A stretch of DNA of 63,685 nt, the filler included, from Collodictyon triciliatum (Eukaryota), in NCBI GenBank assembly GCA_043381765.1. It is 13 parts of 13 records of this genome, joined end to end, with 100 filler letters (N's around TTAATTAATTAA, not from the genome) between each part and the next. Parts side by side here need not be neighbours in the genome. Positions count along the whole stretch, not along the records: positions 51,382 to 56,425 come from JBHJMP010005538.1; 12 more parts are not named here. The stretch is one strand, 5' to 3'. Of the stretch, positions 52,529 to 52,900 are shown one piece after another. Every line of letters starts with the position of its first letter. The first letter of the stretch is position 1. A program made the position numbers and the translations under genes. The notes under the pieces are model-generated. The model did not search any database. It was not told the origin of the DNA and was given only the letters and a program-made list of their open reading frames with translations.

Positions 52529-52782
52529 AAAGAAAAAAACAGAAATGAAAAAAGTGCATTCTCCCAGCCATTCCCCAGATATCTGTGCAACACTTCTATC
52601 TTTGCCCATGCCCTACTTTCCATTCAGTATAAAATGAGACATATCAACAATATTACCAATAAAAATGATACCCCTTCTTCTTTTAAGCCGTGTGAGATTA
52701 AAACAGCCTATTATAGCCGTAATGTTTTTCTGGATTTATTTCTGTCATCTTTCTCACCATACACATATGATTTATTTTAGAC

Positions 52783-52900
52783 TAGAAGGGTTATATCAAT
52801 CTTTCGGTCGATAAACCTGATGCGCTAGCATCCAAGGTCTCACCACTTTTTTCACTATGGTCGTGTAGTGGTGAACGCTGCCAGGATAGACCCAACAGCC
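52783..52900 (-). ncRNA. Putative Fanzor omegaRNA scaffold / element right end, copy 2
   Basis: Aligns with 26277-26393; four hairpins, the last capped by GAAA; ends CCCTTCTA(G). Confidence 0.78.

Follow-up and report, generated by a model that had tools for sequence, protein, structure and literature searches.

The question raised by this locus of Collodictyon triciliatum is whether a foldable block at the 3' end of a Fanzor gene encodes, or once encoded, the omegaRNA scaffold and guide of the nuclease. The DNA that we analysed, referred to here as the window, is a stretch of 63,685 nt from GenBank assembly GCA_043381765.1, in which 13 parts of the genome are joined by filler. An initial annotation of the window had described the block as a conserved, structured, non-coding RNA with four stem-loops, followed directly by a guide. 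The reading that we favour, with moderate confidence, is that the block is a fossil omegaRNA or right-end module of a dead Fanzor1 transposon, which is an already known kind of element.

Based on RNAfold and blastn, the block in the first of two copies (copy A) is 118 nt long and lies at 52783..52900 on the minus strand. All of the strings quoted in the initial annotation were found on that strand between 52900 and 52763, and RNAfold returned the four proposed stem-loops for copy A, all on the minus strand. H1 (52899-52891/52885-52877) has 9 bp; H2 (52875-52867/52847-52839) also has 9 bp and encloses an A-run and an inner stem of 3 bp (52865-52863/52855-52853); H3 (52832-52828/52823-52819) has 5 bp and a UAGC loop; and H4 (52817-52806/52801-52789) has 11 pairs around GAAA. 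The strings GGUCU and AGACC, which had been proposed to pair with each other, are both present and unaltered in each of the two copies. In contrast to the description of the block as non-coding, its start lies on the coding strand, 43 nt 5' of the Fanzor-frame stop codon: block bases 1-46 (52900-52855) are the last 15 codons of that frame plus the UAG stop (52857-52855, minus strand), and their counterpart in the alignment is the C-terminal tail of P0001, an intact relative described below.

For copy A, RNAfold gave a minimum free energy (MFE) of -39.7 kcal/mol, with a z-score of -2.86 for 138 nt (2 of 200 shuffles as good); the 118-nt block scored z -3.42 against 300 dinucleotide shuffles. 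When 72 segments of 118 nt were tiled over 52600-54810, the copy A block had the lowest MFE, followed by a segment in the N-terminal coding part of copy A (54390-54273, minus strand; MFE -29.7, z -3.29). The fold of copy B was weaker, with z-scores of -1.77 and -1.39 in two shuffle tests. No Rfam family matched 52000-55500 at E ≤ 1, and none reached its gathering score anywhere in the window.

These values bear on the possibility that the fold is incidental, arising by chance or as an mRNA 3'-end structure that serves, for example, processing or stability. Only copy A folds exceptionally, a coding segment comes close to it in z-score, and homology to the RNA of relatives is not significant in covariance-model searches, all of which speak for an incidental fold; against it, the lowest MFE of the 72 segments falls at the very place that encodes the guide RNA in Fanzor1 elements and that is occupied by a structured RNA in relatives. 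We regard an incidental fold as quite improbable.

Two Fanzor1 pseudogenes and their divergence

The block adjoins the remains of a nuclease gene in both copies. We aligned these remains with P0001, an intact relative of 648 aa from a public assembly. In copy A (52855..54794, minus strand), a piecewise alignment to P0001 residues 1-642 runs from 54794 to 52864 with at least five frame changes and with in-frame stops, and in the RuvC-II motif NG replaces the invariant NEF of the family, such that the glutamate is lost. Copy B (26440..27767, minus strand) is 5'-truncated and corresponds to P0001 residues 179-616; its longest ORF (26571-27239, minus strand) encodes 222 aa with 65% identity to P0001, and stops and a frameshift occur ahead of the zinc finger CxxC. 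An open frame with an intact RuvC D/E/D triad and zinc finger is absent from both copies. Based on the frame changes, stops and truncation, both Fanzor1 copies are pseudogenes, and no intact nuclease gene was found within the window. At RuvC-I, both copies (53700-53720 and 27180-27200) encode D-A-G, whereas P0001 and the family have DPG, a signature noted for Fanzors; as D-A-G is common to both copies, this change predates their split.

To classify the gene, we used a profile of 30 family members (A2), which was searched against the PDB. The profile matched PpFz1 (E 1.7e-58), SpuFz1 (E 5.5e-58) and GtFz1 (E 4.4e-46), and nothing else at E ≤ 0.01; its alignment with SpuFz1 spans profile positions 3-610 of 629. 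The window ORF at 26571-27239 aligned with SpuFz1 at E 3.7e-5. Judged from these matches, the TnpB-like gene upstream of the block is a Fanzor1 and not a Fanzor2. A Fanzor2/IS607 element was ruled out, since the A2 profile matched Fanzor1 structures only and no Fanzor2 chain at E ≤ 0.01.

The other ORFs of the window belong to ordinary eukaryotic genes, which include a 2OG-Fe(II) oxygenase, an LRR protein and a WD40 protein. At 18378-19397 and 33450-34558, open stretches of 235-350 codons occupy most or all of the six frames, and the GC content is only 23-27%; these two regions look like long simple or low-complexity repeats.

A blastn self-search of the window identified one copy pair only, with 83.3% identity over 1504 nt. 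The block of copy B lies at 26277..26393 on the minus strand and is identical to that of copy A at 100 of 118 positions (84.7%), compared with 263 of 308 positions (85.4%) in the upstream ORF remnant; the only segment with lower identity is the A-rich linker (23/36). Across 209 of 223 codons, dN/dS between the copies is 0.88, indicating that the element as a whole drifts neutrally. The initial annotation had regarded the block as conserved although non-coding, but the block is no better kept than the dead ORF; because the copies decay neutrally, the argument from conservation is void.

Pairing between the copies follows the same pattern. When the 37 pairs of the copy A structure were placed on copy B, 28 were unvaried, 6 were broken and 1 was gapped; 2 had one-sided changes that still pair, and 1 was compensated (U-A to C-G, in H4). 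Thus, 3 changed pairs were kept and 7 were lost, and 252 of 500 shuffles were as good, although a comparison of two sequences has no power. Random breakage of pairs, which the initial annotation had named as evidence against a guide RNA, is what we observed between copies A and B; since both copies are dead, this breakage is uninformative about an active ancestor.

Further copies were sought in sequencing runs. No RNA run was listed with the stretch, and no run contained more than 0.16 of its words. Contigs of two small runs of one study carry the unique flank at 52400-52679 with 2 differences in 280 nt, and in these two runs 349 and 362 pieces, respectively, match the element at 80-99%; the family therefore has many copies in that organism or in one close to it. 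Across four matched runs, contig cover was little at 52673-52763 and fell toward the 3' end, although contig cover cannot rank parts of the element. All four runs consist of contigs of uncertain type. For the two designated X2 and X3, an RNA origin is only a guess, and expression cannot be judged from their cover. In both X2 and X3, contigs connect 54829 directly with 54935 and thereby omit 105 nt with GC..AG ends on the minus strand, a little 5' of the Fanzor start codon; the omitted stretch represents either a 5'-UTR intron or an indel that varies between copies.

The number of copies is relevant to an alternative in which the guide is still used in trans, with dead copies transcribed to serve intact Fanzor1 paralogues and with 52782-52764 as a live guide. 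The many element copies in the contigs of the two runs and the fully intact, very stable fold of copy A are in keeping with such a role, as is a precedent in Spizellomyces, where, in the available text of PMC10432273, ORF-less "ghost" loci retain the conserved SpuFz1 omegaRNA region. Yet the block has diverged neutrally and to the same degree as the dead ORF, 7 of the 37 pairs are lost in copy B, no intact copy was seen in the window, and guiding against arbitrary flanking DNA is of no evident use. On balance, we consider continued use in trans unlikely.

The right-end boundary and the putative guide

As the initial annotation had noted, similarity between the copies ends abruptly; blastn places this end at 52783 in copy A and 26277 in copy B, a boundary that is good to about 2 nt because only two copies were compared. 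The terminal motif of the window block is CCUUCUA. Its last two bases (UA) are common to both copies and could derive from the target, such that the boundary and the start of the putative guide are uncertain by about 2 nt. The stretch that follows directly 3' of the block in copy A (52764..52782, minus strand) is unrelated to the sequence flanking copy B, and it occupies the place that a guide would take if the RNA were made. The predicted guide is simply the DNA that happens to adjoin a dead copy.

Beyond the block, an inverted copy of the element's terminal 12-mer, with 11 of 12 matches, occurs at 52668-52679 (minus strand), 103 nt past the end of copy A. In X2 and X3, long contigs spanning the unique flank cease to match the window at 52679/52680. 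This stop, together with the inverted 12-mer, could mean that a neighbouring element ends here or that the junction is polymorphic.

Neither the left end of the element nor an inverted repeat marking it was found upstream of the gene within 6 kb, based on a search with the reverse-complemented terminal 12-mer at up to 2 mismatches; at this threshold there were 9 matches against 8.5 expected, none of them upstream of the gene. A repeat search of 52500-58500 returned only low-complexity arms and a run of N. Runs of N that represent an assembly gap lie upstream of copy A at ~56426-56525, flanked by TTAATTAA-type sequence, and the left end of the element could lie within them. An exact 12-mer at 49583-49594 was rejected as a third copy; it belongs to a pyrimidine tract ending in CAG and has no further similarity to the block.

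An inverted repeat of 222 nt (51000-51215 and 55716-55937; 80.6% identity, E 7e-54) brackets copy A. The same repeat also brackets an unannotated ORF of 333 aa on the plus strand (51527-52528), for which no Pfam match was found. It could be that the two arms delimit a larger element, or that they are copies of some other repeat.

The boundary raises the possibility that the block acts at the DNA level, as a subterminal structure or an inverted repeat recognised by a transposase, and is not an RNA gene. We assign this a low probability. The block sits exactly on the element boundary, with the inverted terminal 12-mer downstream, and the terminal inverted repeat of published Fanzor1 elements belongs to the same region (available portions of PMC10432273 and bioRxiv 10.1101/2023.08.09.552727); those published cases, as far as described there, show that both roles coexist. 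A matching inverted repeat was not found within 6 kb upstream, in a stretch that includes the run of N, and the block of relatives has compensatory changes of an RNA type, which a protein-binding DNA site would not need.

The 3' module of Fanzor1 relatives

Using family-alignment scans, we collected 160 loci (L001-L160), 80 on metagenome contigs and 80 on viral contigs, many of the latter labelled as giant-virus bins; the encoded proteins share 37-47% identity with P0001. After removal of 22 loci that were duplicates or too short, 138 of the 160 remained, each with a distinct 3' tail and a flank of 200 nt or more. The 138 tails share a nucleotide-conserved block that overlaps the end of the ORF and extends 40-100 nt past the stop. 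The motif GGT[GA]TAA ends 131 of them; of the seven misses, six have one-letter variants and one shows none. Among 133 distinct loci, the majority base reaches a frequency of 0.77 in the 40 columns that precede that end and of 0.41 beyond it.

We manually defined a structure of 29 pairs in five helices for 48 sequences, which were selected from a set of 68 that in turn came from 79 non-redundant tails; rows with long insertions or with the layout of a second clade were left out of the alignment. Within the 48 sequences, 97.1% of cells are paired, compared with 43-52% when partners were slid by 1-3 columns, and 64 cells are doubly changed, compared with 17.5 ± 3.1 in shuffles (0 of 500 as high). 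This pairing and covariation indicate that this Fanzor1 family bears a structured, RNA-like 3' module that ends at the element boundary, equivalent in place to the window block.

In individual loci (e.g., L012:4804-4949 and L003:4822-4948), the module is ~125-150 nt long, with five covarying helices and a near-invariant GGUGUAA end. The relatives come from giant-virus-bin contigs and from freshwater or marine metagenome contigs. Motifs in the tail of the protein, either GLTxT...EKVGQSVDF or ISSFT...EKVRPS, coincide with helices and loops of the RNA, which suggests that the sequence is dual coding.

We searched the window for this module with covariance models. The first model (R1) was derived from the 48 sequences and found 34 of 38 test loci. 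With the entire window as target and filters disabled, R1 matched neither block; its best match lay elsewhere (E 0.27). A second model (R2), rebuilt on 34 diverse R1 matches, found nothing in copy B and gave a local match of 3.8 bits (E 1.4) in copy A, at 52875-52844 (32 nt); this non-significant match aligns UUCAC, the hairpin and GAAAAAAGU. Weak R1/R2 matches at 51986-52099 (E 0.27) and 52601-52726 (E 0.14) were treated as chance, because single long contigs of X2/X3 cover them together with unique flank. A blastn-short search of both blocks against the 160 relative loci returned only chance-level matches of 12-22 nt, a scan of viral contigs with P0001 alone yielded 36 pattern matches and 0 relatives, and an 18-nt string that is invariant in both blocks had 0 matches among viral contigs.

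On visual inspection, the window block and the relatives have one motif order in common (GUCU, UUCAC(C), hairpin, GAAAAA(A)GU, AGACC), and the frame in which UUC-ACC encodes Phe-Thr is the same in the window as in both viral clades. These likenesses were picked after the data had been seen; they are a weak lead and not a test. GGUCU/AGACC of the window block corresponds in position to helix P1 of the relatives (GUCU/AGAC). The candidates for a first stem in copy A are H1 (9 bp) and H2 (9 bp), and an alternative hairpin of 5 bp (CACUA/UAGUG) follows UUCAC, where the viral relatives have a hairpin of 7 bp. A bolder reading would take the block as a live, remodelled guide-RNA gene, with a four-stem scaffold in which a GGUCU/AGACC pseudoknot, the counterpart of P1, preserves the ancestral long-range helix; dead copies would still be transcribed, and their RNA would be loaded in trans onto intact paralogues of a multi-copy family, such that decayed copies serve as a reservoir of guides. 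We think this very unlikely.

Proposed origin of the block and comparison with known Fanzor RNAs

We return to the favoured reading of a fossil omegaRNA or right-end module. The block would be the right-end module of a transposon that carried Fanzor1; active ancestors probably transcribed it together with the 3' end of the Fanzor gene, or from that end. The ancestral transcript would have folded into several stem-loops to form an omegaRNA scaffold bound by the nuclease, and it may have run ~15-20 nt into the flanking DNA, which would have provided the guide. Both copies in the window would now be fossils, with broken nuclease genes and with gene and block having drifted apart neutrally. We infer that the block was once an RNA bound by the nuclease; the omegaRNA proposed in the initial annotation thus stands as a relic. 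In its favour, the position, strand, size, ORF overlap and abrupt end of the block fit published Fanzor1 RNAs, and relatives carry a covarying RNA; against it, conservation between the copies counts for nothing, more changed pairs were lost than kept (7 vs 3), the genes are dead, and the covariance models gave no significant match.

As it stands, the locus is an ordinary decayed copy of a known element class in a eukaryotic genome, and its main use is for annotation, which gains two Fanzor1 pseudogenes and their right ends. It also points to a subfamily, represented by P0001 (65% identity), with a scaffold unlike the well-conserved RNA of the giant-virus relatives. If intact copies with such a scaffold exist, they would provide one more compact Fanzor1/omegaRNA pair testable for genome editing. 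A description of the window subfamily was not found in the available text passages of the Fanzor1 literature.

The published RNAs are compared here as they are described in the available portions of the cited papers. Fz1 RNAs share a 7-bp SL1, which is contacted by the RuvC/TNB domains, followed by one to three variable stem-loops (PMC11423790). With its 118 nt, four stems, overlap with the ORF tail and stop at the right end, the window block fits the published Fanzor1 pattern. SpuFz1 and PpFz1 (from Spizellomyces punctatus and Parasitella parasitica; PDB 8gkh and 9cf0) are the closest solved relatives at the protein level, and their omegaRNA likewise lies at the 3' end of the gene, terminates at the right end and draws its guide from the flank (PMC10432273; PMC11423790). 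The SpuFz1 RNA is described as a 75-nt scaffold with a 14-15-nt guide, spanning the 3' inverted repeat (PMC10432273). Including the guide, the SpuFz1 and PpFz1 RNAs have 90 and 75 nt, with the 7-bp SL1 plus one stem-loop, and they lie downstream of the stop, whereas the window block has 118 nt, four stem-loops and 46 nt within the ORF; this comparison is one of described layout, not of sequence.

The Fanzor2 RNA of a mimivirus, the ApmFz2 fRNA of an IS607 element, resembles the window block in its conserved 3' non-coding region, with the guide beyond the right end, and it co-folds with the end of the ORF (PMC10530073, available portion); however, the window family matches the Fanzor1 class, whereas ApmFz2 is a Fanzor2.

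A closer resemblance in layout, again by description only, is to GtFz1 and to the Fanzor1 of SfAV. GtFz1 (Guillardia theta, PDB 9cer) has a long multi-stem scaffold (SL1-SL4), and its RNA overlaps 17 codons (PMC10432273; PMC11423790). The SfAV Fanzor1 reRNA has a scaffold of ~120 nt and a guide of ~20 nt, with a stem-loop beside the guide (bioRxiv 10.1101/2023.08.09.552727). The GtFz1 and SfAV RNAs are reported in these sources as expressed and bound, whereas the window block is a putative RNA whose nuclease genes are dead.

The RNA of L001-L160 shares with the window block the overlap with the ORF tail, the abrupt end, and the motif order GUCU, UUCAC, hairpin, GAAAAAGU, AGAC. The window block differs from it in the 3' half, which lacks the terminal stem and ends in CCUUCUA rather than GGUGUAA, and in having the extra hairpins H1 and H3 instead.
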